Below the pieces are notes generated by a model. The model saw only the letters and a program-made list of their open reading frames with translations, did not search any database and was not told the DNA's origin. From IMG/VR virus record IMGVR_UViG_3300025450_001231: 64,000 nucleotides of DNA, one strand, 5' to 3'. Shown piece by piece: positions 7,541 to 64,000 of this stretch; the first letter of the stretch is position 1, and the number at the start of each line of letters is the position of its first letter. The translations under genes were made by a program, and so were the position numbers. This DNA is from a virus. Its lineage: Duplodnaviria > Caudoviricetes.

Positions 7541-7562
7541 CCGCTTCGGCGGGTTTCTTTTT
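7539..7562 (+). terminator. intrinsic terminator after tmRNA
   Basis: ACCCGC-TTCG-GCGGGT followed by T-rich tract. Confidence 0.9.
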
Positions 7563-7590
7563 GAGTAAATACTTTTTTAATCAACTAATT

Positions 7591-44870: not shown

Positions 44871-44904
44871 TAAATACTGCAATATAATTAAATTATTGCA
44901 GTAT
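44871..44904 (+). promoter_or_regulatory. late promoter plus 11-bp perfect hairpin reaching the start codon
   Basis: TAAATA 44871-76; ATACTGCAATA 44874-84 / TATTGCAGTAT 44894-904. Confidence 0.75.
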
Positions 44905-47122
44905 GTACTCATTTGAACTATTTGAAGCTGGCGCAACCCGTATAGTTGTAACCTACCCCGGACGTTTTCAACCCTTCCATCAAGGGCACGCCGGGGTTTT
45001 TCACGCACTCCAAAAAAAGTTTGGTAATGACAATGTGTATATTGTTACCAGCAATGATCAAAGCAGTGCCAAAAGTCCTTTTAATTTCAGCGACAAATAT
45101 CAGTTAATGACTGCTGCAGGTATCCCTGCCAATCATATCATTGAAGGCAATCAAATGTACAAATTGCCCGAAGGTTTTGATCCTGAGACTACAGTATTTG
45201 TTACTGCAGTGGGTGCACCTGATGCCAAAAGATTAAACCCCGATTCTTATCTAAAGCGTGATAATGCTGCTTCAGGCAAAAAAGCCGGAGATCCCAGTTA
45301 CTTTTTAACTTGGGGGAAGAATGATGCAATGCCTGCTATGGAACACGGCTATGTAGTTGTAGTTCCTGAAATCAAAAAATCAATTGATATCGACGGACAA
45401 ACATACGATGTTAGCCATGGCACTGAATGCCGTAATCTATGGCTAAGACTAAAAGATAACGAAAAAGGTCGTGCAGAATTCCTAAAACAGTTGTATGGCC
45501 GTGCTACACCAGAATTAGCACACATATTTGATAAAATACAACCTGTTAGTGAAGATGAAATGCCTGACGGCGATTACAGTACTAGTCCTATACACGGCGG
45601 TAATGTAAGAGAAGATGCCAGTGGATATATTCCTAAGAATAAAAAAGAAGCACGCGATCCACGTTGGAGCAATGCACTAACCGTAGACGTGCATCCAGAC
45701 ACTCCAATGAAGAACCTACGTGCATTTAAGTTAGCAGAAACTGTCAACCCAGACGATTTTCATATACACGACACTGACAAGCTGGATCGTGTATTGGCAC
45801 ATTTGTGTAAAATGATTATACAAGGTCAACAGGATCGTCCGGACTACTACGGTATGGTTGCATCGGCAGTAATTGATCCAAAAAATCAAATTGCATTGGG
45901 TATAAATTATCTTGCCGACGAAGGCAAACGTGTGCACGGCGAACGTGCAGCTATAGACGAGTATAATAAAAAATACGGCGAGATTCCCGAAGGCAGTATC
46001 ATTGTTACTACACTAAGCCCTTGTTGCAGTCCAATGGATGAGCGTTACGGTGAAAGTTGCACAGACCTTATCAATGATACCAATGTACACAAAGTTTACT
46101 GTGGTTACAAAGATCCTTCACAAGAAGAAACAATTAAAAAATTATTCCATACTGCAGCTACTCGAAATGATAAACTACAGTCGTTATGCAAAGACTTTGC
46201 CGATACATTCTTGGGTGTAATCAGCGAAGACGAAGAAGGCGGCCGTGCAATGATGGGCAAGTTGGCTGACACAGGTAAGATTGTGCGCATACTGCGTAAG
46301 CAATATTCAGTGCCGTTTAGCCAAGAAAAAGAATGGTTATTGATTGATACTGACCCTGAAAAAGGCAATCGCGGCCTAGGTATCAAGTGGGTACCTGCTA
46401 GTACCAAGTTTACTTGGATTCGTCCTTTTAGAGAAAAGATTGACGAAAACAAAGACAGTTGGCAAAAACATAAAAATCCACGTGCAGGTGGAATGAGTAA
46501 AAAAGCAGTAAAAAGCTATCGTCGTAGTCATCCAGGCAGTAAAATCAAAACTGCAGTTACCAAATCTCCTAAGAAGATTAAAAAAGGCAGTGCAGATGCC
46601 AAACGTCGTAGTAGTTTTTGTGCACGTATGAAAGGTATGAAAAAGAGTCGTACCAGTGCTAAAACCGCACGAGATCCTAACAGTAATATAAACAAAAGCC
46701 TGCGTCGTTGGCATTGTAACGAAAGCATCAACTCTAATAGTGATGCAGAGTTTCCAAATTTATTGGCCAAGTTTTTGCCTATAGCAATGCAGGATTTGAA
46801 ACTTGATAAGTTGCCTAAAATCAAGTTGGAGAAACACATTCAAGACAAAGACGGACAAGCAACTTTTGGACGTTTTGTCAACAACACCTGTACTATACAC
46901 CTTGCTATAGCTGATCGTCATCCAGTGGATATTTTACGCACTTTGGCACACGAATTAACACACTACAAACAATATACACTCAATGAACTAACTTCTGGCA
47001 GTGGACGTACTGGTAGTCCTGAAGAAAACCAAGCACACGTTATGGCGGGTATTATTATGCGTCATTTTAACAAGAGTTTTCCCACTGGAGTTAACTTAAC
47101 TCCAATTGAATTAAAATCTTAA
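44903..47122 (+). CDS. multidomain late protein: nucleotidyltransferase + Zn deaminase + basic module + HExxH metallopeptidase
   Basis: YPGRFQPFHQGH; HGE...TTLSPC...C; RRSSFCARMKG; LRTLAHELTH. Confidence 0.75.
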   Translation: MYSFELFEAGATRIVVTYPGRFQPFHQGHAGVFHALQKKFGNDNVYIVTSNDQSSAKSPFNFSDKYQLMTAAGIPANHIIEGNQMYKLPEGFDPETTVFVTAVGAPDAKRLNPDSYLKRDNAASGKKAGDPSYFLTWGKNDAMPAMEHGYVVVVPEIKKSIDIDGQTYDVSHGTECRNLWLRLKDNEKGRAEFLKQLYGRATPELAHIFDKIQPVSEDEMPDGDYSTSPIHGGNVREDASGYIPKNKKEARDPRWSNALTVDVHPDTPMKNLRAFKLAETVNPDDFHIHDTDKLDRVLAHLCKMIIQGQQDRPDYYGMVASAVIDPKNQIALGINYLADEGKRVHGERAAIDEYNKKYGEIPEGSIIVTTLSPCCSPMDERYGESCTDLINDTNVHKVYCGYKDPSQEETIKKLFHTAATRNDKLQSLCKDFADTFLGVISEDEEGGRAMMGKLADTGKIVRILRKQYSVPFSQEKEWLLIDTDPEKGNRGLGIKWVPASTKFTWIRPFREKIDENKDSWQKHKNPRAGGMSKKAVKSYRRSHPGSKIKTAVTKSPKKIKKGSADAKRRSSFCARMKGMKKSRTSAKTARDPNSNINKSLRRWHCNESINSNSDAEFPNLLAKFLPIAMQDLKLDKLPKIKLEKHIQDKDGQATFGRFVNNTCTIHLAIADRHPVDILRTLAHELTHYKQYTLNELTSGSGRTGSPEENQAHVMAGIIMRHFNKSFPTGVNLTPIELKS

Positions 47123-48396: not shown

Positions 48397-50393
48397 TGTT
48401 TATTAACGATTTATTTGATAACAAAAAAATACAAGAAGCTGCTAATGCTGCTCAACAGGCTGCAATTGCCATTAATATGAAAAAACATCATCAAAAGCCC
48501 AAGGATATGAAAGAGGCTGAAGTAGATGAAATGTTTGGTTTTATGAGTCCTAAGAAACCTAGTCCCACTGACTATGCAACAAAAGTAAGCAGTGCCCCTA
48601 AGAAGTTAACTAAACAAGACTACGACGAATTAATGAAGCAGTCAGAAAGACCAAAAGGAACACAGGTTGTATATCATAACAGAGATGAATATGTTAAAGA
48701 TATGCAAAGAAGAAATATCAAGCCAGCAACCATTGAAGAAGAAGATATTGCAGAAGGCGAACGCAATATGAGTCGTGCTGCTAAAGGTGTAATGAAATAT
48801 GGCAAGGATGGTATGAAGGCATTGGCCAAAGCAGGTAGAGAAGGTGCCAGCGACGAAAAATTAGACACTATACGTGACAAGTACGACCATTATAACGAAA
48901 GTGTAGCAGAAGATTCAGAAAAACGTTGTATGCAATGTGGTATGAAAAACTGTAGTTGTACACCAGGTAAATGCAAGTGTAAGCCTGTTGCAGGTTGGGT
49001 ACCAGGCAAAGGTTTTAAGAAGGCTATGGAAGAAGCTGCATTAAACGAAAAATGGAGTCAAAAATACAAGAGCAGTATTAATTGCTCACATCCAAAAGGT
49101 TTCAGTCAAAAGGCGCATTGTGCCGGTAAAAAGAAACACAATGAAGATATAACTATGGAAATGACCTGCCCTGATTGCGGTATGTGCCAAACACACGGCA
49201 ATCTTAACGAAATTAAAAAGGGTCAAAAAGATTCAAATGGATACACCAAATGTTGGCCTGGCAAACACGCAGAAGGTACTAAGAAATCTAGTGTTACAGG
49301 TAAACAAGTAAGAAACTGTGTACCAAACAAAGGTGTGAAGGAAGGCCATGCAGACCAACAACGCAAAATCTTTAAGAAGAATGGTAAGCCAGTAGGCGAA
49401 GTTGGTATTGACCGTGAATCAAGTCCTGGCAACGGCCAATGGTATATGAAATGTTATGCTTACGACATAGACAATGCGGGCTACGATTCATACGAAGAAG
49501 CCGTTGAAGAACTAAAACATTGCTTAAAGCAAGGTGTGGCGGAAGGTGGTGCTGAGACAAGTTGGTCTAATGACACAGATACGATTACACTACAGGATAT
49601 TTTAGAATTAACCAAACACATTAAACAAATAAATTTACCGATAAACGATAATCTAAAGAGTAAACTACTTCATTGGGAAGGTAACCCAGAAGAAATAGAA
49701 AGAGTTAATCAAGTAACGGTGTCTAATCAATTTCCTATTTTAATTATGGTAAATGAGCAAGGTCAAATAGAATGGATCCTTGATGGCAACCATAGACTAC
49801 ATAAAGCAATACAGTCCCAAGCAAAAACAATACCTGCTAAACTTATTAGACCCAACAATCTTAACGACAAAGCAAAGAAAATATTTAATATAAAAGAACA
49901 AGGTGTGGCGGAAGGCCATCCTGAGGACGACGATGATCACGAGTGTTATGATTGCCGCGGCACTGGCGAAGGCCAACACGAAGGAACCAGTTGCAGAACC
50001 TGTGGTGGTACTGGCGTAGCACGCCCAGATCACGAAGAAGATGATTCAGATTATGAAGAACGCTTAAATTATCGCAGAAGATTTAGAGAAAGTAAAATCT
50101 ATTATAATGTAGTAGGTACACCTGCTGCAGCATTGCGTGAACAGTTTGGTATGAGAAAAGACCGCAATGGTTGGTACTTGAAAGAAACTGCTGGCCGTAA
50201 GCGTATACTTGAGGCACACAAAGCATTTGGTAATCCTTTGACAGAAGGTATGAATCTAGCTGCTTATAATGGCAGTACTGCTATCATCGGCGACGGTAAT
50301 GCCATTAGTCCAGTGGGCAGTAATCCACGCAGACAACAAGAATTGATCCCTACACGAAATAGTAAAGCGAAGAAAAATGGAAGAATTAGTTAA
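48396..50393 (+). CDS. modular polyprotein-like late protein with ~12 Glu-bounded modules (incl. ParB-like and DnaJ-type zinc finger)
   Basis: KGVKEG and two QGVAEG junctions; ILDGNHR; CxxCxGxG...CxxCxGxG. Confidence 0.7.
   Translation: MFINDLFDNKKIQEAANAAQQAAIAINMKKHHQKPKDMKEAEVDEMFGFMSPKKPSPTDYATKVSSAPKKLTKQDYDELMKQSERPKGTQVVYHNRDEYVKDMQRRNIKPATIEEEDIAEGERNMSRAAKGVMKYGKDGMKALAKAGREGASDEKLDTIRDKYDHYNESVAEDSEKRCMQCGMKNCSCTPGKCKCKPVAGWVPGKGFKKAMEEAALNEKWSQKYKSSINCSHPKGFSQKAHCAGKKKHNEDITMEMTCPDCGMCQTHGNLNEIKKGQKDSNGYTKCWPGKHAEGTKKSSVTGKQVRNCVPNKGVKEGHADQQRKIFKKNGKPVGEVGIDRESSPGNGQWYMKCYAYDIDNAGYDSYEEAVEELKHCLKQGVAEGGAETSWSNDTDTITLQDILELTKHIKQINLPINDNLKSKLLHWEGNPEEIERVNQVTVSNQFPILIMVNEQGQIEWILDGNHRLHKAIQSQAKTIPAKLIRPNNLNDKAKKIFNIKEQGVAEGHPEDDDDHECYDCRGTGEGQHEGTSCRTCGGTGVARPDHEEDDSDYEERLNYRRRFRESKIYYNVVGTPAAALREQFGMRKDRNGWYLKETAGRKRILEAHKAFGNPLTEGMNLAAYNGSTAIIGDGNAISPVGSNPRRQQELIPTRNSKAKKNGRIS
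49530..49915 (+). repeat. 17-bp perfect direct repeat CAAGGTGTGGCGGAAGG flanking a 369-bp in-frame ParB-like module
   Basis: copies at 49530-49546 and 49899-49915; degenerate copy AAAGGTGTGAAGGAAGG at 49329. Confidence 0.9.
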
Positions 50394-50811
50394 AGCTCTC
50401 AAAATTGCATTTAGTACTGAATTCAGTTTCTATTTGAAAAGTCACTACTTTCACTGGAATGTGGAAGGTGCAGACTTTTTTGAATATCATCAATTGTTTG
50501 AAGCTATCTATAGCGAAGTTTACGAAAGCATCGATCCATTTGCAGAAAACATTCGCAAATTAGGCAGTTATACTCCTGGCAGCTACACACGCCTAAGTAT
50601 GCTGACACAAATTGAAGACGAAACCGATATTATTCCTGCTAAAGCAATGATTGCAGAATTATTGGAAGATAATGAAAAAATAATCAAAGTATTAAAACTG
50701 GTGTTCGAACTTAGCGAGCGCGAACGCGAAGCTGGACTCAGCAACTTTTTAGCCGAAAGAATGGATGCACATCGCAAACACGGCTGGATGTTGCGTGCTA
50801 GCTTAAAGTAA
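50377..50811 (+). CDS. dps: Dps/ferritin-like DNA starvation protein
   Basis: FHWNVEG..F...H..F..Y......D..AE.IR.LG; H.KH.WML. Confidence 0.92.
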   Translation: MEELVKALKIAFSTEFSFYLKSHYFHWNVEGADFFEYHQLFEAIYSEVYESIDPFAENIRKLGSYTPGSYTRLSMLTQIEDETDIIPAKAMIAELLEDNEKIIKVLKLVFELSEREREAGLSNFLAERMDAHRKHGWMLRASLK

Positions 50812-52344: not shown

Positions 52345-52643
52345 TGGATCAAATATCAAATGCATTTGTCGATATTTATAAATGGGCCGAGCGAGATTAT
52401 CGCGAGTGGCCACTGAGGTTCTGTGTTGAAATATTGGCTTGGGCTATTAGTATTAGTTGTAGCCTCACCATGGCTATTACAGTACCCAATCCTCCTCTTT
52501 TGGCTCTTTACCCTGTTTGGATATCTGGTTGCGCTATGTACGGTTGGGCTAGTTGGACTCGTGGAAGCTTTGGTATGCTTGCTAATTACTGTTTGCTTGT
52601 TAGCATTGACGCTGTGGGGTTATTCAGGATGATCACTCAATGA
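52344..52643 (+). CDS. small three-pass membrane protein
   Basis: hydrophobic 99 aa. Confidence 0.6.
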   Translation: MDQISNAFVDIYKWAERDYREWPLRFCVEILAWAISISCSLTMAITVPNPPLLALYPVWISGCAMYGWASWTRGSFGMLANYCLLVSIDAVGLFRMITQ

Positions 52644-55318
52644 GTTACGTAGACGCATTATTTGATCGCAAAGGTGATCGCATACACATTGTAGAACGTG
52701 TAAATGGCGAACGGGTATACAAAGAGTATCCTGCCAACTATGTGTTTTATTACGATGACCCAAGGGGCAAGCACCGTACTATTTACGGCACACCTGTTAG
52801 TAGATTTACCACCAACAACGGTAAAGAGTTCCAAAAGGAAATGCGTATACAGGGTAATAAGCGACTATGGGAAAGCGATATCAAACCTGTATTCAAATGC
52901 CTTGAAGAAAACTATTTAGGTGCAGAACCTCCCAAGTTACATACTGCATTTTTTGACATTGAAGTAGACTTTGATCCTAAACGTGGATTTAGTCCAGTTA
53001 GCGATCCGTTCAATGCTATCACTGCCATCAGTGTGTATATGGATTGGTTGGAAAAACTAGTAACGCTGGTAGTACCTCCCAAAGGTATGAGCTGGGCCAC
53101 CGCAGAAGAAATTACTAAAAAGTTTGATGACTGCTATATCTTCGAACGTGAGGAAGATATGTTGGATACATTTCTTAACCTAATAGACGATGCAGATATC
53201 CTAAGCGGTTGGAACTCGGAAGGCTATGATATTCCCTATACCACTGGACGCATTACTCGTGTGCTCAGCAAAGACGACACACGCAGATTATGCTTGTGGG
53301 GACAATATCCCAATCAAAGAATGTTTGAACGCTATGGTACAGAAAGCGTAACATTTGATTTAGTTGGTAGAGTCCACTTGGACTATATGCAACTGTATCG
53401 CAAGTATACATATGAAGAACGCCACAGTTATAGCTTGGATGCTATTTCTGAATATGAACTAGGAGAACGCAAAACACAATACGAAGGCACATTAGATCAG
53501 TTGTACAACAAGGATTTTCCAACGTTTATTACTTATAATCGCCAGGATACCATGTTGTTATCACGATTGGATAAGAAACTAAGATTCTTAGACTTAGCAA
53601 ATACCATTGCTCACGATAACACGGTGTTATTGATGACCACAATGGGCGCAGTAGCAACAACAGAACAGGCAATTATCAATGAAGCACACAGTCAAGGATT
53701 GGTCGTACCTAACAGGAAACATAGAGAAGAAGAATCAGACACAGAGTCGCAGGCCGCAGGTGCCTATGTTGCTTATCCCAAAGTCGGAATGCACGACTAC
53801 ATCGGAGCAATTGACATCAACTCGCTCTATCCCTCGGCTATTCGAGCCCTTAATATGGGACCAGAAACAATTATTGGACAGCTGAAACCTGTAATGACTG
53901 ACCACTACATCAAAGAAAAGATGTCCAGTGGTTCTAGTTTTGCAGCTGCTTGGGAGGGATTGTTTGGCAGCTTTGAATACGAAGCAGTTATGCGTGGCGA
54001 TGCCGGAACTGAAATTACTGTTGAGTGGGAAGCGGATGGTACCAGTGATGTAATGAGTGCTGCTGATATTTGGCGACTGGTATTTGACAGCAACAAGCCT
54101 TGGACTATTAGTGCCAATGGCACATTGTTTACCTATGAGAAAAAAGGTATTATCCCGGGACTGCTAGAACGGTGGTATGCTGAACGTAAACAGATGCAGG
54201 CCAAGCTCAAAGAAGCTATTGCGGCCGGAGACAAGGCCGCAGAAGAATACTGGGACAAACGACAACTGGTTAAGAAGATTAACTTGAATAGTCTGTATGG
54301 TGCTATTTTGAATCCAGGTTGTAGATTCTTTGATCATCGTATTGGACAAAGTACTACACTAACTGGCAGAACTATTGCTAAACATATGGATAGTTTTGTA
54401 AATGAAGCTATCACTGGAAAATATGATCACGTGGGTGATGCTATTATCTATGGTGATACTGACTCAGTTTATTTTACTGCTTGGCCTGCTATCAAAGATG
54501 ATGTGGCAGCCGGTCGTATGGAATGGAATAAGGATACTTGTATTCAGGTATATGATAATATTGCTGATCAAGTCAATGATTCATTCCCAGGATTTATGGA
54601 ACGTGCTTGCCATTGCCCCCGTGAGATGGGCGCTATTATCAAAGGTGGCCGAGAACTTATTGCCACTAAAGGTCTTTTTATTAAAAAGAAACGATACGCA
54701 GTATTGATCTTTGACAAAGAAGGCAAGCGACAAGATGTTGGCGGTAAGCCAGGTAAAGTTAAAGCCATGGGCTTGGACTTGAAGCGTAGCGATACTCCCA
54801 AAGTAGTGCAAGACTTTTTAAGTGAAATCTTGTTAGATGTGCTAACTGGTACAGAAAAAGAAGACATTTATAAAAAGGTCAAAGACTTTAAGTTATTGTT
54901 CCAAGACCGCCCGGCTTGGGAAAAAGGCACACCCAAACGTGTCAACAACTTGACCAAGTATACTGCCGAAGAAGCAAGACTTGGTAAAGCCAATATGCCC
55001 GGACACGTTCGTGCTGCTATGAACTGGAACAATCTGAAACGTATGTACGGTGACAACTATAGTATGGGCATTGTTGATGGTATGAAGACCATCGTATGTA
55101 AACTCAAAGATAATCCACTGGGCTACACCAGCGTAGGATATCCCACTGATGAAACACACATTCCACAGTGGTTCAAAGATTTACCATTTGATGATAACCT
55201 AATGGAATCCACCATTGTAGATCAAAAGGTAGACAACCTGTTGGGAGTATTGAACTGGCAAATTGCCGAAAATACTGACATCAGTTCAACCTTTGCTGAT
55301 TTATTCACTTTTGAATAA
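52640..55318 (+). CDS. polB: family B DNA polymerase (gp43-like)
   Basis: exo FFDIEVD, GWNS..YD, D..LYRKY; pol DINSLYPS, KINLNSLYG, YGDTDS; no intron or intein seen. Confidence 0.97.
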   Translation: MSYVDALFDRKGDRIHIVERVNGERVYKEYPANYVFYYDDPRGKHRTIYGTPVSRFTTNNGKEFQKEMRIQGNKRLWESDIKPVFKCLEENYLGAEPPKLHTAFFDIEVDFDPKRGFSPVSDPFNAITAISVYMDWLEKLVTLVVPPKGMSWATAEEITKKFDDCYIFEREEDMLDTFLNLIDDADILSGWNSEGYDIPYTTGRITRVLSKDDTRRLCLWGQYPNQRMFERYGTESVTFDLVGRVHLDYMQLYRKYTYEERHSYSLDAISEYELGERKTQYEGTLDQLYNKDFPTFITYNRQDTMLLSRLDKKLRFLDLANTIAHDNTVLLMTTMGAVATTEQAIINEAHSQGLVVPNRKHREEESDTESQAAGAYVAYPKVGMHDYIGAIDINSLYPSAIRALNMGPETIIGQLKPVMTDHYIKEKMSSGSSFAAAWEGLFGSFEYEAVMRGDAGTEITVEWEADGTSDVMSAADIWRLVFDSNKPWTISANGTLFTYEKKGIIPGLLERWYAERKQMQAKLKEAIAAGDKAAEEYWDKRQLVKKINLNSLYGAILNPGCRFFDHRIGQSTTLTGRTIAKHMDSFVNEAITGKYDHVGDAIIYGDTDSVYFTAWPAIKDDVAAGRMEWNKDTCIQVYDNIADQVNDSFPGFMERACHCPREMGAIIKGGRELIATKGLFIKKKRYAVLIFDKEGKRQDVGGKPGKVKAMGLDLKRSDTPKVVQDFLSEILLDVLTGTEKEDIYKKVKDFKLLFQDRPAWEKGTPKRVNNLTKYTAEEARLGKANMPGHVRAAMNWNNLKRMYGDNYSMGIVDGMKTIVCKLKDNPLGYTSVGYPTDETHIPQWFKDLPFDDNLMESTIVDQKVDNLLGVLNWQIAENTDISSTFADLFTFE

Positions 55319-55325
55319 ACAGGCA

Positions 55326-55354
55326 TTGATTTTTCTAAATATATCATATACAAT
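55326..55354 (+). promoter_or_regulatory. sigma70 promoter
   Basis: TTGATT-17-TACAAT. Confidence 0.7.
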
Positions 55355-55377
55355 AACACAACATTAAGGAAATTAAT

Positions 55378-56109
55378 ATGAAAGACCACCTTTTAGACAT
55401 CGTACAACATACACACAGCCTCGGAGGCATTGATATTGCTAAAGTTACAGGCACAGAAGATAATACCATTTTAGAAGCACTTTCTGAAAATCGTAGCATC
55501 ATTCTGCAGGCCAAATTCAAAGGACCAGTAGCAGATTTTATTGGAGTATTTGGTATGCCTAATCTCAGCAAACTAAACACTATTTTGAATATTCCAGAAT
55601 ACAAAGAAGACGCAGTTATTACTGTTACTCGCCAAACCAAAGGCGAAGATAATGTACCAGTAGGCGTACACTTTGAAAACAAAGCTGGTGACTTTAAGAA
55701 TGATTATCGTTTTATGGCAGAAGCTATTGTAAGTGAGCAATTGAAAAGTGTTAAAATGAAATCTGTTAAATGGATTGTAGACTTTGTGCCTTCTAATAAC
55801 AGTTTGCAAAGATTGAAATTCCAAGCCAGTGCTAATAGTGAAGAGCCTAATTTTTCTGTAAAAACAGAAGGCACGGATCTTAAATTTTACTTTGGCGATC
55901 ACAGTAGCCACGCAGGAGACTTTGTGTTCCAAAGCGGTATCAGTGGCAAGTTGACTAAAACTTGGAGCTGGCCAGTTGCAGCAGTTACTAGCATTTTGAG
56001 CTTGCCCGGTGACAAAACATTTAAGATCAGTGACGAAGGTGTTGCAATGATTACTGTAGACAGTGGCATTGCTGACTACAACTATATGTTACCTGCACAA
56101 ACAAAATGA
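55378..56109 (+). CDS. sliding clamp (gp45-like)
   Basis: 243 aa beta-rich, adjacent to polB; clamp loader present in window. Confidence 0.65.
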   Translation: MKDHLLDIVQHTHSLGGIDIAKVTGTEDNTILEALSENRSIILQAKFKGPVADFIGVFGMPNLSKLNTILNIPEYKEDAVITVTRQTKGEDNVPVGVHFENKAGDFKNDYRFMAEAIVSEQLKSVKMKSVKWIVDFVPSNNSLQRLKFQASANSEEPNFSVKTEGTDLKFYFGDHSSHAGDFVFQSGISGKLTKTWSWPVAAVTSILSLPGDKTFKISDEGVAMITVDSGIADYNYMLPAQTK

Positions 56110-57671
56110 TCCGAGACGACTTAACCAGTAAGCAAAGCGACTATGCGGTATTTTTACCAGCACTCAGTAGCTTTTATGGCACTTACATAGGCAAACAAAG
56201 GCACGATCCCAACTACATAGATCCTGCTCGTATACCTGCACAATTTGAAAATGGAATTGAGGGCCTTAACTGGTTAAACAGTAAAGAAGGATACTTTCAT
56301 TACAAATGGGCATTGTATAGTGCAGGGCACGCCAATTTGGATGTTAATAAATTCGATCCCAAAGAAGATATGGTTCGCAATCGTGATCCCAATACCTTTG
56401 TATTGGGCGATAGTGGCGGATTCCAAATTGGTAAAGGGGTATGGGAAGGCGATTGGAAAGATCCCAATTGTCCCAAAGCTATGAAGAAACGTAGCCAAGT
56501 ATTAAGCTGGATGGATGCTTATATGGATCGCGGTATGACCCTGGATATTCCAGCGTGGGTAGCCCGTAGTCCTGCAGGCCAAAAGGCCACTGGCATTTAC
56601 TCATATCAAGATGCAGTTGATGCTACCTACATCAACAACGAATACTTTATGAACAATCGTACAGGTCGTTGCAAGTTCTTGAATGTGCTACAAGGCGAGG
56701 ATCACACTCAAGCAGATGATTGGTATGAACGTGTTAAAAAGTTCTGCGATCCCAAACAATACAACCGTCCGTTTGAAGGATGGGCTATGGGTGGACAGAA
56801 TATGTGTGACATACATCTTACACTTAGAAGATTGGTTGCACTGCGCTTTGATGGCCTGTTAGAAAAAGGTCTACACGATTGGATGCACTTCTTGGGCACC
56901 AGTAAACTCGAGTGGGCCACGTTGTTAACTGATATTCAACGTGCTGTTCGCAAATATCATAACAGCCAATTTACCATCAGCTTTGACTGTGCAAGTCCAT
57001 TCTTGGCAACTGCCAACGGACAGATCTACTATGATATCACTACTCCGGATCGTGGCAAGTGGAGCTATCAAATGCAACCCAGCGTTGATAATAAAAAGTA
57101 TGCTACAGACACAAGGCAGTTTGGTGATGCACTATTGCAAGACCGAATATTTGATACTTTTGTAGAAAGCCCAGTTAGTCTTAGAACACTAATCAAAGAT
57201 GTTTGTATATACAAACCCGGTGATCTAAATAAGATTGGTAAAGAAGGTAAAACTTCTTGGGATAGTTTCAGCTATGCCATTCAAATGGGTCATAATGTTT
57301 GGACACATATCGAAGCAGTTCAACGTGCCAATAGAGCATACGACAGTGGTAGTTATCCAAATATGTTGGTAGCCAGTAAAATGAATGGCAAAAAATTCCA
57401 ACAGTATGATCGCCATTTTTTCAGAGACATTGTTGACGCTATATTTGAAACCAGTGATCGTGGTCGTGCAGAAGAACTAATCGAACACTATAACAAATAT
57501 TGGAAAGCCATTCCTGGAACTCGTGGTTATACCGGTGAAAATACGCAAAATAGCAACACTATGTTCAATCAATTGTTTAGTACTGTTGACGATAATTCAG
57601 ATGATGTGTATAATACAAGAGATAACAGCGGATTAGATGAAACGAAACTTATAGAATTGGAGACTTTATAA
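56106..57671 (+). CDS. TGT/DpdA-like guanine transglycosylase
   Basis: GDSGGFQ, MTLDIP, GWAMGG, HFLG, SFDCASP align to TGT catalytic motifs. Confidence 0.85.
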   Translation: MIRDDLTSKQSDYAVFLPALSSFYGTYIGKQRHDPNYIDPARIPAQFENGIEGLNWLNSKEGYFHYKWALYSAGHANLDVNKFDPKEDMVRNRDPNTFVLGDSGGFQIGKGVWEGDWKDPNCPKAMKKRSQVLSWMDAYMDRGMTLDIPAWVARSPAGQKATGIYSYQDAVDATYINNEYFMNNRTGRCKFLNVLQGEDHTQADDWYERVKKFCDPKQYNRPFEGWAMGGQNMCDIHLTLRRLVALRFDGLLEKGLHDWMHFLGTSKLEWATLLTDIQRAVRKYHNSQFTISFDCASPFLATANGQIYYDITTPDRGKWSYQMQPSVDNKKYATDTRQFGDALLQDRIFDTFVESPVSLRTLIKDVCIYKPGDLNKIGKEGKTSWDSFSYAIQMGHNVWTHIEAVQRANRAYDSGSYPNMLVASKMNGKKFQQYDRHFFRDIVDAIFETSDRGRAEELIEHYNKYWKAIPGTRGYTGENTQNSNTMFNQLFSTVDDNSDDVYNTRDNSGLDETKLIELETL

Positions 57672-57880
57672 TGGTAGAAAATGCAACTAACATTTTGGCG
57701 ATGACCATACTTAGCGGATGTGCAGTAGTTTTGGCAATTATGTTTATTATCTTAATTAACAATTTGTTACATAAGTATTGGAAACCATTGGGTTGGTTCA
57801 GTGCGTGGGGTGTTGCACCAAGATTTGTGACTACCGAAGACGCCAAGCAAGACCCTGCAATGGATCCCAATCATAAATGA
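57671..57880 (+). CDS. small membrane protein
   Basis: one long hydrophobic helix. Confidence 0.55.
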   Translation: MVENATNILAMTILSGCAVVLAIMFIILINNLLHKYWKPLGWFSAWGVAPRFVTTEDAKQDPAMDPNHK

Positions 57881-58749
57881 AAGCACTTGTTGTTGGCTTA
57901 GGTATAGGACAGTTGTACAAAACTGTTTTAACCAATCTCGGTTATGAAGTAATAACTGTAGACTCCAATATTGCAAAAGGTGCAGACTTACCTACAGTAG
58001 ATTCTGCAGTAATAGCACACGCACCTTTTGATATTACATTTGTTTGCACACCAAATCATACACATTTTGAATTGGCCGCAAAGGTTGCACCCTACAGTAA
58101 AATTGTATTCATCGAAAAACCCGGAGTATCAAATAGTTTCAGTTGGACTAATTTGGTAACTGTGTTTAAGAAAACACGTTTTATGATGGTCAAGAACAAT
58201 ATGTGGCGCAGTAATATTGCCGAGTTACAATCGTTGGCCAGCCAATCTGATACAGTAAAGATACAATGGCTTAGGCATAATTGTATCCCTAATCCTGGCA
58301 GTTGGTTTACTACAAAACGATTAGCATTTGGTGGTGTTAGTCGAGACTTGATGCCACATTTGTTAAGCATATACATTGCTCTAAATCCCAATTGGCGTAA
58401 AGTGTCTGCAACCAACAGAAATGCAGTTACAAATTGGAAACTAGCAGATATCGAAAGTACAGAGTACGGCACAGTTAACTACAGTGGAACTTATGATGTA
58501 GACGACCGTTGTACTATTAACTTTGGCGATAAATGGGCTTTGGTTGCAGATTGGCGTACGCTCGAAGAGGACAACAGCTCAATCGATTTTATTGCTAATA
58601 CAAACACCAATGTGGAATTAGGTTGGTGTCCTGAAGATGCGTATACTGCAATGATTAAAGATGCAGTCGCTAATATTAATAATCATCAATTCTGGTTAGA
58701 TCAGTTTGAAATTGATACTTGGATTCACGAACAAATAGAAAATCTATGA
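57877..58749 (+). CDS. Gfo/Idh/MocA-family oxidoreductase
   Basis: VVGLGIG, VCTPNHTH, IEKPG, GGVSRDL.PH. Confidence 0.85.
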   Translation: MKALVVGLGIGQLYKTVLTNLGYEVITVDSNIAKGADLPTVDSAVIAHAPFDITFVCTPNHTHFELAAKVAPYSKIVFIEKPGVSNSFSWTNLVTVFKKTRFMMVKNNMWRSNIAELQSLASQSDTVKIQWLRHNCIPNPGSWFTTKRLAFGGVSRDLMPHLLSIYIALNPNWRKVSATNRNAVTNWKLADIESTEYGTVNYSGTYDVDDRCTINFGDKWALVADWRTLEEDNSSIDFIANTNTNVELGWCPEDAYTAMIKDAVANINNHQFWLDQFEIDTWIHEQIENL

Positions 58750-59696
58750 CCAACAGAATTTTATATACCAACGGACAAGGTGAATTTGCAGAAACCGTAT
58801 ACGATAAACCTCCAGTGGGCGAATACGAAATCGAAGTTCGATCAGTGTTAACCGGGGTATGTCGCAGTGATGTGGATATGATGACGGGCAGTTTTGGTCC
58901 GCTACCTTTGAATATGAGTGGACACGAAGGCCTTGGTCAAGTCACTGCAGTGGGCAAAGGTATCTACGACATTAAAATTGGCGATTATGTTGCCACACGC
59001 GGTGAGCCGGCTTATGCTGATTCTTATAATGTTCGAATTAACGAATTTGTGCGTGTGCCATCAGCAGAACCTAAATACATATTAGAACCTGTGGCCTGTG
59101 GTATTAATATTATACAACAACCTATTAGGGAAATAGCAGAACGCAGTGGCCCGGGTAAACGATTGGTAATATTAGGTAGCGGATTCCTTGCGTGGGTTGC
59201 GTATAACACTATTAAATTATTGCATTTAGACTTTGATATAACTGTAGTCGGTCATAGCAATAAAGATCTTTGGGGTAGTGCACTCAAAGATGACGCCAAA
59301 GTTGGTCATAGCAATAAAGAGCAGTGGAGTAGTGTACTTAAAGATACTGCCGAAGGCACTTACGATGTGGTAATTGATCTAAGTGGTAATACCAATGTAT
59401 TCGAAAGTGATATGGTAAATGCCGAAGCATTGATTGTGTTTGGTGCACAAAAAATGCTTACAACTGATTTCTCCAATGTGTTGTGGAAAGCCTGTACTGT
59501 TATATTCCCAAGTCCAAGGACCAAAAGGTTTATTCAGTGTATGGAAGATGCAGCATATTGGATAGAAATGGGCGATTTAGTCGTTGACAGTTTCTGGACT
59601 AAAGGCTATAATAGAGACACTGAGTGGCAAAATGCATTCAGAGATTCATTAACCCGCCCTGAGAATTATTCAAGGGGCTACATTTATTGGAAGTAA
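58746..59696 (+). CDS. zinc-dependent medium-chain dehydrogenase (start moved to ATG 58746)
   Basis: GVCRSD, GHEG.G, GD.V, LEPVAC, LGSG. Confidence 0.85.
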   Translation: MTNRILYTNGQGEFAETVYDKPPVGEYEIEVRSVLTGVCRSDVDMMTGSFGPLPLNMSGHEGLGQVTAVGKGIYDIKIGDYVATRGEPAYADSYNVRINEFVRVPSAEPKYILEPVACGINIIQQPIREIAERSGPGKRLVILGSGFLAWVAYNTIKLLHLDFDITVVGHSNKDLWGSALKDDAKVGHSNKEQWSSVLKDTAEGTYDVVIDLSGNTNVFESDMVNAEALIVFGAQKMLTTDFSNVLWKACTVIFPSPRTKRFIQCMEDAAYWIEMGDLVVDSFWTKGYNRDTEWQNAFRDSLTRPENYSRGYIYWK

Positions 59697-59697
59697 T

Positions 59698-60297
59698 ATG
59701 GCACTTGATACAGATAGCCGTAAGATGATTACCTACTTTGTAGGTACAGAAGTAGAAAACACCCCAATGAAGAATGAAACTACATTATTTGTAGTAGGCA
59801 TTCAACCAGTAGAAGACATCATTGCAATTGTCAATGAGTCATTAAAAGATCCTAATCCAAAAAATCATATCAAAAATATTTACTTTGGTACAAGCCAAAG
59901 TTTCCATCCCGAGAACGCATACGAATGGGCTGCGTGGGATGATATGATCAAACCTTTGTTGATCAAAGACTACTGGGTGACTTTAGACTTTGGTGTTGAA
60001 TATGCTCGAGAACTACACGAGAACGGTTGGTGCGAATACAACACATTCATCCCTATGATCAGTGTTAAGATTCCCTATATCAAGCTCTATAACTATAATG
60101 CTACACTAAAGATCGACGACAACACTTGGGGAGATACAAACCCCGGTGTTTGGTGCCATCCCTTAAACGAACTGCTAACCAGAAACGTCTACACAGACTG
60201 GCGTGAGTATGTTGGTGATACACCAGTGGGTGTGCCTGCCAAAGTTGAATTCGAAGATATTATACAACCACCTAAAATTAAGGCAAAAAAGAAATGA
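59698..60297 (+). CDS. conserved hypothetical protein in queuosine-pathway cluster
   Basis: TLFVVG, IYFG.SQSF, TLKIDD, GVWCH; no CxxxCxxC. Confidence 0.65.
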   Translation: MALDTDSRKMITYFVGTEVENTPMKNETTLFVVGIQPVEDIIAIVNESLKDPNPKNHIKNIYFGTSQSFHPENAYEWAAWDDMIKPLLIKDYWVTLDFGVEYARELHENGWCEYNTFIPMISVKIPYIKLYNYNATLKIDDNTWGDTNPGVWCHPLNELLTRNVYTDWREYVGDTPVGVPAKVEFEDIIQPPKIKAKKK

Positions 60298-60740
60298 TTA
60301 ATCAAGATCAACGTGCACAAATAGATAGAATTATGGCGGCTGCAGATCGTATGATCTCAGTTACATTCCAAAAGGAAGGCATTCACTGCTATCCAGCAGC
60401 TGCCACAGATCCAATGTTGGCTACAGGAGATATGTATGATGTTAGTTTTCTTGGCACTCCGCATCGTCACATTTTCCACTTCAGAGTCTATATTAGTGTT
60501 ACTCATAATGACCGCGATATTGAATTTATACAGTTCAAACGCTGGTTAGAACACTTATACTCTAATGGTACATTGGAATTAGATTATAAAAGTTGCGAAA
60601 TGATCAGTGATGATCTTTACTTACAGATCGCTGCTAAGTATCCTAACCGTACAGTTTGGATCGAAGTTAGCGAAGACGGCGAAAATGGTGCGGTAATCAA
60701 ATACAATACCACAAGACCCGATTTATCAGTTGTTATTTAA
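60294..60740 (+). CDS. queD: QueD/PTPS-like T-fold protein
   Basis: H.H motif (PHRHIFHFRV), SCEM, IEVSEDGENG. Confidence 0.7.
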   Translation: MINQDQRAQIDRIMAAADRMISVTFQKEGIHCYPAAATDPMLATGDMYDVSFLGTPHRHIFHFRVYISVTHNDRDIEFIQFKRWLEHLYSNGTLELDYKSCEMISDDLYLQIAAKYPNRTVWIEVSEDGENGAVIKYNTTRPDLSVVI

Positions 60741-60755
60741 TAATAAGGAAAACAA

Positions 60756-60965
60756 ATGTCACAACCAAAATGGCTTGAAAAATATCTAAGAATGAAACCC
60801 GAAGTCGATAGACTGTTTGATGACTTGGAAGGCTACAAAGATTTTTGTAGAATGAATATGTTGAAGTACGATGAGAAAGATTTATATCGCAGTGACCAAT
60901 ATCGCAAGTACGAGCGTTACAGGCACTATATGAATAAACAAGCAGAGTACAACAATCAGAGATAA
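60756..60965 (+). CDS. hypothetical protein
   Basis: AAGGA SD; 69 aa. Confidence 0.6.
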   Translation: MSQPKWLEKYLRMKPEVDRLFDDLEGYKDFCRMNMLKYDEKDLYRSDQYRKYERYRHYMNKQAEYNNQR

Positions 60966-60966
60966 T

Positions 60967-62037
60967 ATGACCATCTTCTTAGTTGATTTAGAAGCGGTAG
61001 AAACAAGGTATACGGGTCAATGGAAGACTCATATACCTGATTTACTTACAAAGGCAGGACACAATGTCACGATTATATCGGGCCCTAGAGATATTCCTAG
61101 CGCCACTACTCCTGGTGCATTTCTCAATTTTGGGGGCACTAATATCTATAAGGCAAGCCAAGTTGAACAACTTGGAAGACTTTTTTGTACAGGAGCCGTC
61201 CAGGCTGGCGATCATTTTATCTTTACTGATGCCTGGCATCCTGGTATCATAAACCTAAAGTATATGAGTGAGTTGTTGGGAATCCCAGTAACTACACACG
61301 GACTTTGGCACGCTGGCAGTTATGATCCTCAAGACTTTTTAGGACGATTAGTCGGAGATAAACCTTGGGTTAGATTTGCTGAAAAAAGTTTCTTTGAAGC
61401 GTTTGATCACAACTACTTTGCCACAGACTTTCACATCGATATGTTTTGTAAAAATCTATTACATATCGTAATGCCGCAAACAATTGAAGGTTTCAAAGAG
61501 ATTGGAAAAATTGTTCGCACAGGTTGGCCGATGGAGTATATGGACGATACATTGTCTGCATATAAAAATATGACCAAGCGAGATCTTGTACTGTTTCCAC
61601 ATCGTATTGCTCCCGAGAAGCAAGTGGAAATTTTTAGAGATTTGGCCACTCACTTGCCACAATACGAGTTTGTGGTATGTCAGGATCAACAGTTAACCAA
61701 AGATCAATATCATCGATTATTGGGCGAATCCAAATTGGTTTTTAGTTGTAGTTTACAAGAAACACTGGGAATTGGTTGCTACGAAGGTTCGCTAGTAGAT
61801 GCTATCCCTATGGTTCCAGATAGACTTAGCTATAGTGAAATGTATTACGATACATTCAAATACCCAAGCGAATGGACAGAAAGTTTCGAAGCATACGAAG
61901 CGCATTGTCCAGAACTTTGTGAGAAGATTATCCAATATATGGATAACTATCCCCACTTTTTGCCCAAATTAAAACAACAAACTGTTGCGCTAATTGAAAA
62001 CTTTTTCAGTTGCAATAATTTTCTAAATAAGTTATAA
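60967..62037 (+). CDS. GT-B (family 1/4-like) glycosyltransferase
   Basis: RIAPEKQ, QETLGIGCYEG, PMVPDRLSYSEM. Confidence 0.85.
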   Translation: MTIFLVDLEAVETRYTGQWKTHIPDLLTKAGHNVTIISGPRDIPSATTPGAFLNFGGTNIYKASQVEQLGRLFCTGAVQAGDHFIFTDAWHPGIINLKYMSELLGIPVTTHGLWHAGSYDPQDFLGRLVGDKPWVRFAEKSFFEAFDHNYFATDFHIDMFCKNLLHIVMPQTIEGFKEIGKIVRTGWPMEYMDDTLSAYKNMTKRDLVLFPHRIAPEKQVEIFRDLATHLPQYEFVVCQDQQLTKDQYHRLLGESKLVFSCSLQETLGIGCYEGSLVDAIPMVPDRLSYSEMYYDTFKYPSEWTESFEAYEAHCPELCEKIIQYMDNYPHFLPKLKQQTVALIENFFSCNNFLNKL

Positions 62038-62057
62038 TAAACAAAGTTAGGAACTAT

Positions 62058-62798
62058 ATGAAATTAAAACCAGTATCATACGACAACATAGACGAAGGCG
62101 GCTATGAAGAATCTAGTTTAGCAGATGTTCTTCGTTTTAAGATGAAACGAGAAGGCAAACGCTTTTGGGCTAACGATAACATTAGTGAATATCTAAGCGA
62201 AGATGATAAAGAACGCCTAATAGAAGAAGCAACTGAAGCATTTGAGCAAGTACTGAAAACTTTACTGATCGACACAGATACCGATCCTAGTAGTAAAGGT
62301 ACTGCTCGACGACTGGCAAAAATGTACATTAATGAGGTGATGAGTGGAAGATATGATCCAGCCCCGGACGCAACAGCGTTCCCAAATGATTCGCAAGACC
62401 GTTACGAAGGTATGCTTGTTGTTCGCAGTGAACTGCGTAGTATGTGCAGTCATCATCACCAACCTGTGGCTGGTGTGGCTTATATTGGTATTATTGCTGC
62501 CAATAAACTTATTGGCTTATCTAAGTATTCCAGAATTGCACAGTGGTGTGCAAGACGAGGCACTCTCCAGGAGGAGCTTTGTAATGAAATTGCTAAAGAA
62601 ATAGGTCGAGCCACTGGTGCAAATGATATTGGTGTTTATGTTCAAATGACACACGGATGTTGCGAGAATCGAGGCATTATGGCACACAGTAGTTTAACAC
62701 AAACATCTGTGCTTAAAGGTGCATTCAAAGATGACTCTGGTACTAAGAAAGAGTTTTTTGATAATATTAAACTACAACAGGACTTTGCCCCAAGATGA
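62058..62798 (+). CDS. folE: GTP cyclohydrolase I
   Basis: GTARRLAKMY, SMCSHHH, GLSK..R, LQEEL, H.CC..RG. Confidence 0.95.
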   Translation: MKLKPVSYDNIDEGGYEESSLADVLRFKMKREGKRFWANDNISEYLSEDDKERLIEEATEAFEQVLKTLLIDTDTDPSSKGTARRLAKMYINEVMSGRYDPAPDATAFPNDSQDRYEGMLVVRSELRSMCSHHHQPVAGVAYIGIIAANKLIGLSKYSRIAQWCARRGTLQEELCNEIAKEIGRATGANDIGVYVQMTHGCCENRGIMAHSSLTQTSVLKGAFKDDSGTKKEFFDNIKLQQDFAPR

Positions 62799-63259
62799 GA
62801 CCATTAGCCCATTTAGGAGTCGGACCTAATTCCGAAGATTATAAATTATATTTGCTAGATCAACAATTATACGATGTGCTCACTGAGAGAGGAGAAAGTA
62901 TATTAGAAGATGCCATGAAAAAATTTATGGGCCACTATTATAACAATCCACCTTTACCAACGCTAATCGAATTAAACGAAAATTTTGATAAATGGTTGAA
63001 TAACAAACAGAATTTAGAAAAATTAAAAGCTCCAAAATCTTTAATAGATATAGCTGAAGAAAACATCACCGAGCTTTATCAAGACATTCAAAATAAAAAG
63101 TACGGATCAATGTCTGATTCTGTATATAAAAAATATCGAGAAGCTTATTTTGCAAAAGAAAACGAATGGCATAATTCAAAAGAAAAAGAAAAATTGTTGG
63201 ATGAAATCTATTCGTATAACGAAACTGAATATAATAAAATTAAAAACAAAATCAATTAA
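62795..63259 (+). CDS. AT-rich hypothetical protein
   Basis: 154 aa, Lys/Asn/Glu-rich, visibly more AT-rich than flanks. Confidence 0.55.
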   Translation: MRPLAHLGVGPNSEDYKLYLLDQQLYDVLTERGESILEDAMKKFMGHYYNNPPLPTLIELNENFDKWLNNKQNLEKLKAPKSLIDIAEENITELYQDIQNKKYGSMSDSVYKKYREAYFAKENEWHNSKEKEKLLDEIYSYNETEYNKIKNKIN

Positions 63260-63454
63260 ATGATTAAAAAAGCATTTGCAAGAATAGTCAGCGAAGTGTT
63301 ATACTACTTAGGACACTGGATAAGTTTTCCAATGAGTCGTTTTGATTGGGATTGGTTATATCCTGTGTACAATCAATTGATGACGTGGAGTATCGATACA
63401 CAAGATTGGGCAGGAAATGATAAACCGTGGGAGAACGTAGATGAGCACAGCTAA
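63260..63454 (+). CDS. small Trp-rich hypothetical protein
   Basis: 64 aa. Confidence 0.55.
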   Translation: MIKKAFARIVSEVLYYLGHWISFPMSRFDWDWLYPVYNQLMTWSIDTQDWAGNDKPWENVDEHS

Positions 63455-63677
63455 AGCAATAAGCGATGATCTAATAAAAAAACTTAGAAATCCTAATGTA
63501 AAAATGTATACAGTCAAAAGACAGATGTCCAAAAAATGGTTACCAAAAGGTGTTGCACCTTTTGATATTCATATTAAAAATGGTACAGGAACTTTCGAAG
63601 TACTTGCAGAAAGTCAAGAATCTGCAGAGTCAATGGTTGATGAGTTTTTAAGCGGGCAAGAGAATCATAATGATTAA
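63441..63677 (+). CDS. hypothetical protein
   Basis: 78 aa; GVAPFDIHI. Confidence 0.55.
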   Translation: MSTAKAISDDLIKKLRNPNVKMYTVKRQMSKKWLPKGVAPFDIHIKNGTGTFEVLAESQESAESMVDEFLSGQENHND

Positions 63678-64000
63678 AAGCCTTAGTAGCAGCGGCGATT
63701 GGTTGAATATAGCTGGCTCTGGCACCGGTGCCTCAATCTACATAGACAACTACAAGTTACAGCAAGGCCTAGCTGGGCAGGTTCGATATACTGGCGACCA
63801 TTTTGAAGTCAACGATGGCAACAGTTGGCGTCCTTTGTATGACAGTTATGCTACGATAGATGTTACTCATAAAGCTGATGCTGTGTTAAAATGGGCCTTC
63901 GAAAAAATGACCCAAGAACAAGAAGCAAAAGAATTGGCGACGAAACATCCAGCAGTTCAAGATGCTTTAGACTCTGTAAAAGATGCAGAAGACAAATTAA
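63670..64000 (+). CDS. hypothetical protein, truncated by window end
   Basis: ATG 63670, open to the end of the window. Confidence 0.55.
   Translation, partial: MIKSLSSSGDWLNIAGSGTGASIYIDNYKLQQGLAGQVRYTGDHFEVNDGNSWRPLYDSYATIDVTHKADAVLKWAFEKMTQEQEAKELATKHPAVQDALDSVKDAEDKL

Follow-up and report, generated by a model that had tools for sequence, protein, structure and literature searches.

What would a phage do with a glycosyltransferase encoded among genes for a modified guanine? The question is raised by a gene run near the end of a 64,000-nt stretch of DNA (hereafter the window) from IMG/VR virus record IMGVR_UViG_3300025450_001231 (Caudoviricetes), part of an uncultured lake-water jumbo phage whose replisome is T4-like and which has genes for a family B polymerase, tail fibres, a Clp-type ATPase and a DNA ligase. 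A first-pass annotation, made from the sequence alone, had described an operon here that combines deazaguanine genes, two dehydrogenases and a glycosyltransferase (GT), and had suggested that the redox and GT genes together build a sugar- or cyclitol-decorated deazaguanine. We favor, with a probability of roughly 0.6, a replisome-linked, QueC-less DNA-modification module of the DpdL type, which would place 7-deazaguanine in DNA (dDG) and whose built-in GT would add a sugar to the deazaguanine. The GT half of the earlier proposal therefore survives, as the GT remains linked to the module, and the redox half does not, as the dehydrogenases are not in the conserved module. The core is a known DpdL-type system; the fixed GT and an orphan protein, u199, are not accounted for by any described pathway.

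In the proposed pathway, FolE, QueD and QueE would, judging from their families, convert GTP to 7-carboxy-7-deazaguanine (CDG), and DpdL would turn CDG into 7-deazaguanine by the decarboxylation proposed for its family. A 521-aa DpdA-like protein, again going by its family, would exchange guanine in phage DNA for 7-deazaguanine. Gene linkage suggests that the GT would add a sugar to the deazaguanine, whether to residues already in DNA or to the free base ahead of its insertion, and the outcome would be a sugar-bearing purine in phage DNA, likely shielding it from host restriction. Conserved linkage would also make u199 a part of the module, and an optional pair of dehydrogenase genes (gfo-adh) may serve to modify the sugar or the sugar donor, unless the two are auxiliary genes unrelated to the module.

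Deazaguanine genes and the transglycosylase

Eleven co-directional genes occupy positions 55378–63259 of the + strand, with spacings of −4 to +20 nt that include start/stop overlaps. More than 595 IMG/VR contigs show a conserved gene order here, so these are not chance open reading frames (ORFs). The genes of the first-pass list, from the clamp to FolE, all lie on the + strand where they had been placed, and FolE and both dehydrogenases pass the Pfam cut-offs; two conserved 69-aa ORFs (57671–57880 and 60756–60965) had been omitted. The features are as follows.

52640–55318, +: family B DNA polymerase (polB; PF00136 1.2e-35, phrog_262 1.3e-193), at the head of the conserved gene order
55378–56109, +: putative sliding clamp, 243 aa (phrog_12062, no function assigned)
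56106–57671, +: divergent transglycosylase with a predicted tRNA-guanine transglycosylase (TGT) fold, DpdA-like, 521 aa (predicted structure)
57671–57880, +: single-pass membrane peptide, 69 aa (hydrophobic stretch; weak DUF4395 match below the cut-off)
57877–58749, +: Gfo/Idh/MocA NAD(P) oxidoreductase, 290 aa, accessory (PF01408)
58746–59696, +: Zn-type medium-chain dehydrogenase, 316 aa, accessory (PF08240)
59698–60297, +: orphan protein u199, 199 aa, conserved module member
60294–60740, +: DpdL, a QueD paralogue, 148 aa (LxxxHRHxF motif; phrog_17812 2.5e-36)
60756–60965, +: conserved soluble protein, 69 aa, between DpdL and the GT (79/80 loci)
60967–62037, +: predicted GT4-like (GT-B) glycosyltransferase, 356 aa (EX7E, family profile)
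62058–62798, +: GTP cyclohydrolase I, FolE (PF01227 8.9e-38, NF006824 2.6e-40)
62795–64000, +: small ORFs without assignment, the first of 154 aa, leading toward QueD, cupin, MazG-like and QueE genes beyond the window
64931–67128 (window numbering, on contig L089): QueD, cupin, MazG-like protein and QueE, followed by RNase H

The FolE match to PF01227 (129.9 bits) covers profile positions 3–178 of 179, and NCBIfam FolE models also match, though under their equivalog cut-offs. That QueE is not visible in the window, as the first-pass annotation had said, was confirmed, and the downstream check it had called for located the gene. Contig L089 shares 11,943 nt with the window without a single mismatch and continues past its end, placing QueD and QueE 0.9–3.1 kb beyond. 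There, QueD (PTPS 2.1e-16), a cupin protein (Cupin_2 6.4e-12), a MazG-like protein (5.9e-4, short of the Pfam cut-off) and QueE, in a divergent form (66280–67128; TIGR03365 3.9e-14), lie in succession. QueC was found neither in the complete genomes of phages PA5oct and Phosso nor in five related contigs of 212–280 kb. Xanthomonas phage X1 encodes, immediately after FolE, a PP-loop protein of 177 aa (PAPS_reduct 1e-13; L094 4335–4868); from its sequence, it could have an amidating or activating role like that of QueC, in which case the end product in that lineage would differ.

The window gene first described as QueD-like is indeed a T-fold QueD paralogue, but its sequence identifies it as DpdL, a putative decarboxylase, and the true QueD is the gene beyond the window. 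It carries LxxxHRHxF, lacks the catalytic Cys and matches the DpdL of phage phiST (CGPG_00067; tblastn 7e-11, with 33% identity across 81% of the query). The motif recurs in nearly all of 30 aligned relatives; PA5oct and Ahp1 have HFHYF, and a few others end in V or I. DpdL has been defined as a QueD paralogue in which CxxxHGH is replaced by LxxxHRHxF; it is found in phages with DpdA, FolE, QueD and QueE and without QueC, and is proposed to decarboxylate CDG to 7-deazaguanine (Cui, Hutinet et al., NAR 2023, PMC10516641). Here, a single contig carries FolE, QueD, QueE, DpdL and the DpdA-like gene. Because DpdL is present and no QueC was found, the core base to be expected is 7-deazaguanine, as in phiST, and not preQ0, which the first-pass annotation had given as the product of FolE, QueD, QueE and QueC.

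The 521-aa protein has no match in Pfam, NCBIfam, PHROGs or PDB sequences. At E up to 0.01, PF01702 (TGT), PF23859 (DpdA) and DUF6610 matched neither it nor any of 50 relatives in its family, a 50-member hidden Markov model (HMM) was blank against both PDB and Pfam, and none of the family’s 990 clusters (50% identity) has a Pfam domain. An AlphaFold2 (AF2) model built on 50 diverse members was confident (pLDDT 89.6) and resembles TGT structures exclusively: the top 50 Foldseek PDB matches (E ~1e-6) and the top 30 of a Swiss-Prot AFDB search are all TGT, and VIA gave TGT at Z 18–19 (rmsd 4.2–4.8 over 290–303 residues). Four residues are invariant in the 50 diverse members, namely D102, S103 and G105 (DSGG) and D294 (FDC); we take D102 and D294 to be the catalytic positions of TGT, corresponding to D102 and D280 of the Zymomonas enzyme. 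By hhalign, the family profile matches the X1 and ACP17 DpdA genes at 96%, and TGT and DpdA clusters are among those listed by an Atlas feature search. Considering that the model matches TGT folds only, that the motif aspartates are kept and that the profile connects to these two DpdA genes, the protein does, on its modeled structure, belong to the TGT/DpdA superfamily as a highly divergent member, to which no named DpdA subfamily could be assigned. The TGT/DpdA-like label given earlier is thus retained despite the missing HMM match. Indirect evidence, namely the replisome context and the restriction resistance of PA5oct DNA described below, points to DNA rather than tRNA as the target.

With DpdL, the TGT fold, FolE, QueD and QueE, and flanks running from polB and the clamp to RNase H, the earlier idea of a 7-deazaguanine module tied to the replisome is supported. 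The clamp itself is less secure. Its label draws on its size, on its place directly behind polB and on a Phosso gene, annotated as a sliding clamp, with which it shares 31% identity, but neither a PDB sequence search nor BLASTP gave confirmation. Scans of the region for promoters and terminators returned chance-level results only, and, compared with cultured phages at the DNA level, the cluster gave a single match, of 179 nt in FolE.

The glycosyltransferase and its linkage

The window GT has no match of its own to PF00534 or PF13692, and NCBIfam, PHROG and PDB-sequence searches were also blank. An alignment of 12 family sequences, down to 25% identity, has an invariant EX7E motif (E265, E273) together with invariant R213, E217 and K218. 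PF00534 (Glycos_transf_1) is matched by 5/12 members (best 8e-12) and PF13692 by 3/12, the family profile picks up WlaC and GlgM, two structures of GT4 enzymes (6eji 2.3e-3, 6tvp 9.3e-3), and the Atlas feature neighbors of the GT carry PF00534. On these sequence features, we classify it as a predicted GT4-like enzyme of the GT-B type.

More than 595 IMG/VR contigs encode this GT, 80 of which were compared for gene order. They run polB, clamp, DpdA-like gene, a first variable slot, u199, DpdL, the 69-aa gene, GT, another variable slot, FolE, and then QueE and RNase H. Where the flanks were long enough, every GT locus also had DpdL (71/71), DpdA (53/53) and u199 (53/53). The variable slots hold 2-oxoglutarate (2OG) oxygenase, phosphoribosyltransferase (PRTase; 24 loci), HIT, PsiE and radical-SAM genes, and the one directly 3' of the GT holds a UDP-sugar dehydrogenase-like gene in 7 loci. 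The window phage has a relative of that gene (PF00984 6.3e-23, resembling UDP-glucose/GDP-mannose dehydrogenases and lying directly 3' of the GT in the 7 related contigs): a 268-aa ORF at 7561–8367 (+) is 43% identical to it, so a sugar-nucleotide dehydrogenase-like protein is encoded ~53 kb from the module.

The linkage extends to distant cultured phages in which the genes are reordered. The order is FolE-u199-DpdA-GT-DpdL-QueE in ACP17, DpdA-GT-DpdL followed by a short epimerase/dehydratase, a PRTase and QueE in PA5oct, GT-DpdA-DpdL-QueE in X1, and DpdL-GT-x-FolE in Phosso; in BCSR5, DpdL lies upstream, followed by GT-DpdA and QueE. The adjacency of the GT to deazaguanine genes survives this reordering at GT identities as low as 24–25%. 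In a survey of 50,697 phage records for GT and DpdL, all 17 records with a strong GT match fell within the 29 that carry DpdL. Three DpdL phages (phiST, RHph_I1_18 and Ahp1) are without a GT-family gene, and a scan of IMG/VR with the PA5oct GT as query returned no match. Overall, the GT behaves as a fixed member of the module across distant phages; an unlinked GT in relatives, which the first-pass annotation had named as grounds for dropping its proposal, was not what we found.

PA5oct (a Pseudomonas jumbo phage, Wroclawvirus) is the closest cultured relative. It shares the order polB, clamp, DpdA-like gene (37% identity), GT (40–42%) and DpdL (56%), then QueE and RNase H, and also has a gfo-adh-u199 trio that is 33–42% identical to that of the window. 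It differs in that the trio is 25 kb from its DpdA and GT genes, and in having the short NAD epimerase/dehydratase and PRTase genes in its module, both absent from the window. Its DNA is reported to be resistant to five restriction enzymes, as would be expected from a modified G, and to be attacked by nucleases that sense hypermodified DNA (PMC12191111). The two extra genes (EST35_0320 and EST35_0321, L081 11425–12389, between DpdL and QueE; epimerase/dehydratase 6e-7, PRTase 2e-11), together with the PRTase between GT and FolE in 24 freshwater loci, are sequence-based hints of nucleotide-level or sugar-nucleotide steps in the module.

PhiST provides the biochemical reference. Its DNA was measured as plain dDG with full replacement (PMC10516641). 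Like the window phage, it has FolE, QueD and QueE without QueC, a DpdL with LxxxHRHxF (7e-11 to the window protein), a TGT-superfamily transglycosylase, a MazG-like neighbor and a site beside replication genes. In contrast, its DpdA3 (CGPG_00065) has 259 aa instead of 521 aa, with an hhalign probability of 66% (E 5.6e-5) over 83 columns and nothing significant by BLASTP, and it lacks both the GT-family gene and u199 that the window carries. ACP17 has the GT between DpdA and DpdL, and u199 just before DpdA. Expression of its DpdA and DpdL in E. coli gave no dDG, and the authors suspected that further enzymes are needed (PMC10516641); other enzymes may therefore be required.

A sugar on a deazaguanine ring has a precedent in the huimycin cluster, whose GT, HuiG, adds N-acetylglucosamine to the exocyclic N2 of a 7-deazaguanine-derived base (PMC7439116). 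As with the window GT, HuiG is encoded beside FolE, QueD and QueE homologs; the product differs in being a free actinomycete antibiotic built on preQ0 (QueC is present), and no transglycosylase is involved. Dapiramicins are grouped with huimycin as glycosylated 7-deazaguanine-derived bases, and a 2026 preprint lists the GT domain PF13439 for the huimycin family. Two further systems resemble parts of the scheme. The α- and β-glucosyltransferases of T4 serve as our working model, as phage enzymes that decorate an already modified DNA base with sugar as a counter-defense; they act on the hydroxymethyl group of a pyrimidine (5-hydroxymethylcytosine), whereas the window GT would act on deazaguanine. 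QTMAN (GTDC1) and QTGAL are GT-B enzymes that decorate a 7-deazaguanine base already in nucleic acid, the queuosine of eukaryotic tRNA; their acceptor, the cyclopentenediol of queuosine, is not makeable by the window pathway.

Because the GT stays with DpdL and DpdA and PA5oct DNA is reported to contain a modified G, we regard glycosylated deazaguanine in DNA as a serious prediction from these gene contents. The literature that we searched contained no report of a glycosylated deazaguanine in DNA, in agreement with the first-pass statement that known phage derivatives are not glycosylated. A more specific version is put forward tentatively, at somewhat worse than even odds: PA5oct, ACP17, X1, BCSR5 and their relatives would make glycosylated 7-deazaguanine through DpdL, a divergent DpdA and a dedicated GT4, with u199 required, and a mobile dehydrogenase cassette would vary the sugar in some lineages, including that of the window.

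Alternatives to the proposed sugar-bearing purine

Several points weigh against a glycosylated base. 7-Deazaguanine has no hydroxyl group, and the acceptor atoms that we can propose (N2, C7/C8 or a still-carboxylated precursor) are a guess. The sugar base of GT-bearing phages is predicted from their genes, and the linkage counts come mostly from one clade with conserved synteny. HMMER detected neither the TGT nor the DpdA Pfam model in this TGT branch, whose specificity for DNA over tRNA is putative. The QueC negative comes from relatives rather than from a complete genome of the window phage, in which a distant QueC is possible. A more distant GT relative in Xanthomonas phage PhiXhv-12 lies in an amino-sugar context with no annotated deazaguanine genes nearby. 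Decarboxylation by DpdL is a proposal (PMC10516641), and since phiST makes plain dDG with DpdL and without a GT gene, the GT is not needed for dDG. The PhiXhv-12 gene (genome of 228 kb) is 27% identical and adjoins GlmS and a BshB-like deacetylase, the three forming an amino-sugar trio (L111; record 120910–124144).

Some of these points would fit DNA with plain dDG as in phiST, in which case the GT would act on a protein, another base or a small molecule, and its linkage would be regulatory or historical. The missing hydroxyl acceptor, the full replacement achieved by phiST without any GT-family gene, the amino-sugar setting of the PhiXhv-12 relative and the hot spots of unrelated auxiliary genes around the GT (2OG oxygenases, PsiE, HIT) all speak for it. 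We nevertheless consider it unlikely, given a GT that stays adjacent to DpdA and DpdL despite rearranged order in at least five distant phage lineages, the restriction of all 17 strong GT matches to DpdL-bearing phages, and a cluster in which no hydroxymethyl-pyrimidine acceptor gene was seen. Decidedly improbable is a nucleotide-pool route, in which a phosphoribosyltransferase makes the nucleotide, the MazG-like protein removes dGTP and the polymerase incorporates the product, leaving secondary roles (tRNA, salvage) for the TGT-like protein and the GT. PRTases do build deazapurine nucleotides in toyocamycin and tubercidin biosynthesis, a PRTase gene lies inside the PA5oct module (PF00156 2e-11) and between GT and FolE in the 24 related loci, and a MazG-like gene neighbors QueE in this phage and DpdL in phiST. 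Against such a route, neither the window nor the 10 kb that extend it gave a PRTase homolog, all informative loci have the TGT-fold gene (53/53), and the known deazaguanine modifications of DNA have been argued to be all post-replicative and DpdA-made (PMC10516641).

The remaining two explanations dispense with DNA as the target. That the TGT-like protein inserts deazaguanine into phage or host tRNA, to be glycosylated there by the GT as QTMAN and QTGAL do, we hold to be very improbable. The nearest solved folds of the 521-aa protein are all tRNA transglycosylases, and queuosine is glycosylated in eukaryotic tRNA. But PA5oct virion DNA is restriction-resistant at G-containing sites (PMC12191111), dDG from DpdL systems is found in DNA (PMC10516641), the module always sits among replisome genes, from polB and clamp to RNase H, and, at E up to 1, PF12038 (QTMAN_N) matches none of the 12 sequences of the GT family. 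A run that combines FolE and a PTPS-family protein with a GT and two dehydrogenases could also suggest a pterin-glycoside pathway with no nucleic-acid role, resembling that of cyanobacterial biopterin glucoside. Pterin glucosyltransferases do occur in cyanobacteria; the idea is nonetheless barely credible for a module in which QueE and a TGT-fold enzyme are fixed members, the T-fold protein has the DpdL motif and no catalytic Cys, and the dehydrogenases are optional.

If glycosylated deazaguanine is indeed made, no purine bearing a sugar would have been described in DNA before it, and it would be a new chemical class of DNA base; to our knowledge, sugar decorations of DNA are all on pyrimidines (5-hydroxymethylcytosine, 5-hydroxymethyluracil and base J). 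The deazaguanine family would grow past the eight derivatives catalogued in 2023, the modified G of the therapy-relevant phage PA5oct would have a candidate identity, and the failure of ACP17 DpdA and DpdL to give dDG in E. coli could be accounted for. Freshwater jumbo phages very commonly carry this module (the >595 contigs and 990 transglycosylase clusters given above), so the glycosylated base would be abundant in nature. It would also bear on restriction and CRISPR evasion, on defenses that sense modified DNA and on nanopore base-calling of viromes.

Dehydrogenase cassette, unassigned members and neighboring genes

Both dehydrogenases are recognizable enzymes. The Gfo/Idh/MocA protein matches PF01408 (5.6e-7, 30.7 bits; cut-off 24) and has its GxGxxG motif as GLGIGQ and EKP as IEKPG. 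The Zn-type medium-chain dehydrogenase matches PF08240 (1.1e-9, 38.9 bits against 23.5), with GVCRSD, GHEG and GSGFLA motifs; the structural-zinc cysteines were not seen. Their genes are always paired but occupy this slot in only 16/62 relatives. Two large related contigs (G001 and G002) carry the intact pair ~100 kb from the module, one 79%-complete related contig lacks it, and in PA5oct, 25 kb from DpdA and GT, the pair precedes the u199 homolog as it does in the window. The first-pass annotation had counted the dehydrogenases as part of the pathway and had itself named their separation from the cluster in relatives, like that of the GT, as evidence to the contrary; such separation is what we observed for the dehydrogenases, and not for the GT. 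As they are unlinked in relatives, we ruled them out as core tailoring enzymes, and the pair is an optional mobile two-gene cassette rather than a fixed part of the module. Weak NCBIfam matches of the two proteins include sugar and cyclitol enzymes, so a sugar-tailoring role is possible on sequence grounds. Particular to this window is the cassette’s place inside the module, next to the u199 gene that it also accompanies in PA5oct.

For u199, present in all 53 informative loci, no function could be assigned. Single-sequence searches of Pfam, NCBIfam, PHROG and PDB sequences found nothing. Its AF2 model (pLDDT 81.9) gave no significant fold match (best Foldseek PDB E 0.04; best Z 6.0 in a wide VIA search), and AFDB yielded one unnamed homolog and nothing else. 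A weak likeness to the QueE barrel recurred (TM 0.52, Z 5.3–5.8) and was not supported by profile comparison (1%). Its Atlas feature matches to relaxase fragments are at chance level. Among the cultured phages PA5oct, ACP17, X1, BCSR5 and Phosso, the u199 profile matched homologs in two only: that of ACP17, which adjoins DpdA (hhalign 98.5%, HMM 1.9e-22), and that of PA5oct, which adjoins gfo-adh (42% identity). The ACP17 homolog (record 83050–83529) matches profile positions 1–174 in an open frame of 170 aa, whereas the deposited coding sequence, ASD50402, has a later start and 132 aa; since the profile match extends upstream within that open frame, the annotated start is probably too far downstream.

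Seven u199 matches labeled as bacterial or archaeal genomes are contigs of metagenome-assembled genomes (MAGs), and those with enough flank hold the whole phage module; matches there therefore say nothing about a cellular role. Module genes occur in bins assigned to Haliscomenobacter, Polynucleobacter, Crocinitomicaceae, Erysipelotrichaceae, Flectobacillus and Pacearchaeota (L102–L108), and polB is included on L103, L104 and L108. These module-bearing contigs are probably phage contigs mis-binned into cellular genomes.

Two more small genes belong with these unassigned members. A 150-aa protein without a family match (64367–64819; L089 12310–12762) is always between GT and QueE, in 38/38 loci with enough flank, and is a further fixed member of the freshwater module. 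A gene 3' of FolE here (63670–64000, +, running off the end; 131 aa at L089 11613–12008) has a homolog between clamp and DpdA in 31 related loci, so it moves within the module. With hhalign, the proteins d150, d110, d131, s69b and the MazG-like protein gave no match above 50% among the unassigned neighbors in PA5oct, ACP17, X1, BCSR5 and Phosso.

Elsewhere in the window, three + strand genes are of separate interest. A full-length ClpB/ClpC-type double AAA+ ATPase (40694–42931; phrog_4871 3.9e-241) and a ferritin-like protein (50377–50811; PF00210 1.8e-19) are encoded just 5' of the replisome genes. At 44903–47122, a 739-aa protein joins cytidylyltransferase-like, dCMP/cytidine deaminase-like and DUF6321 regions in an unusual fusion.

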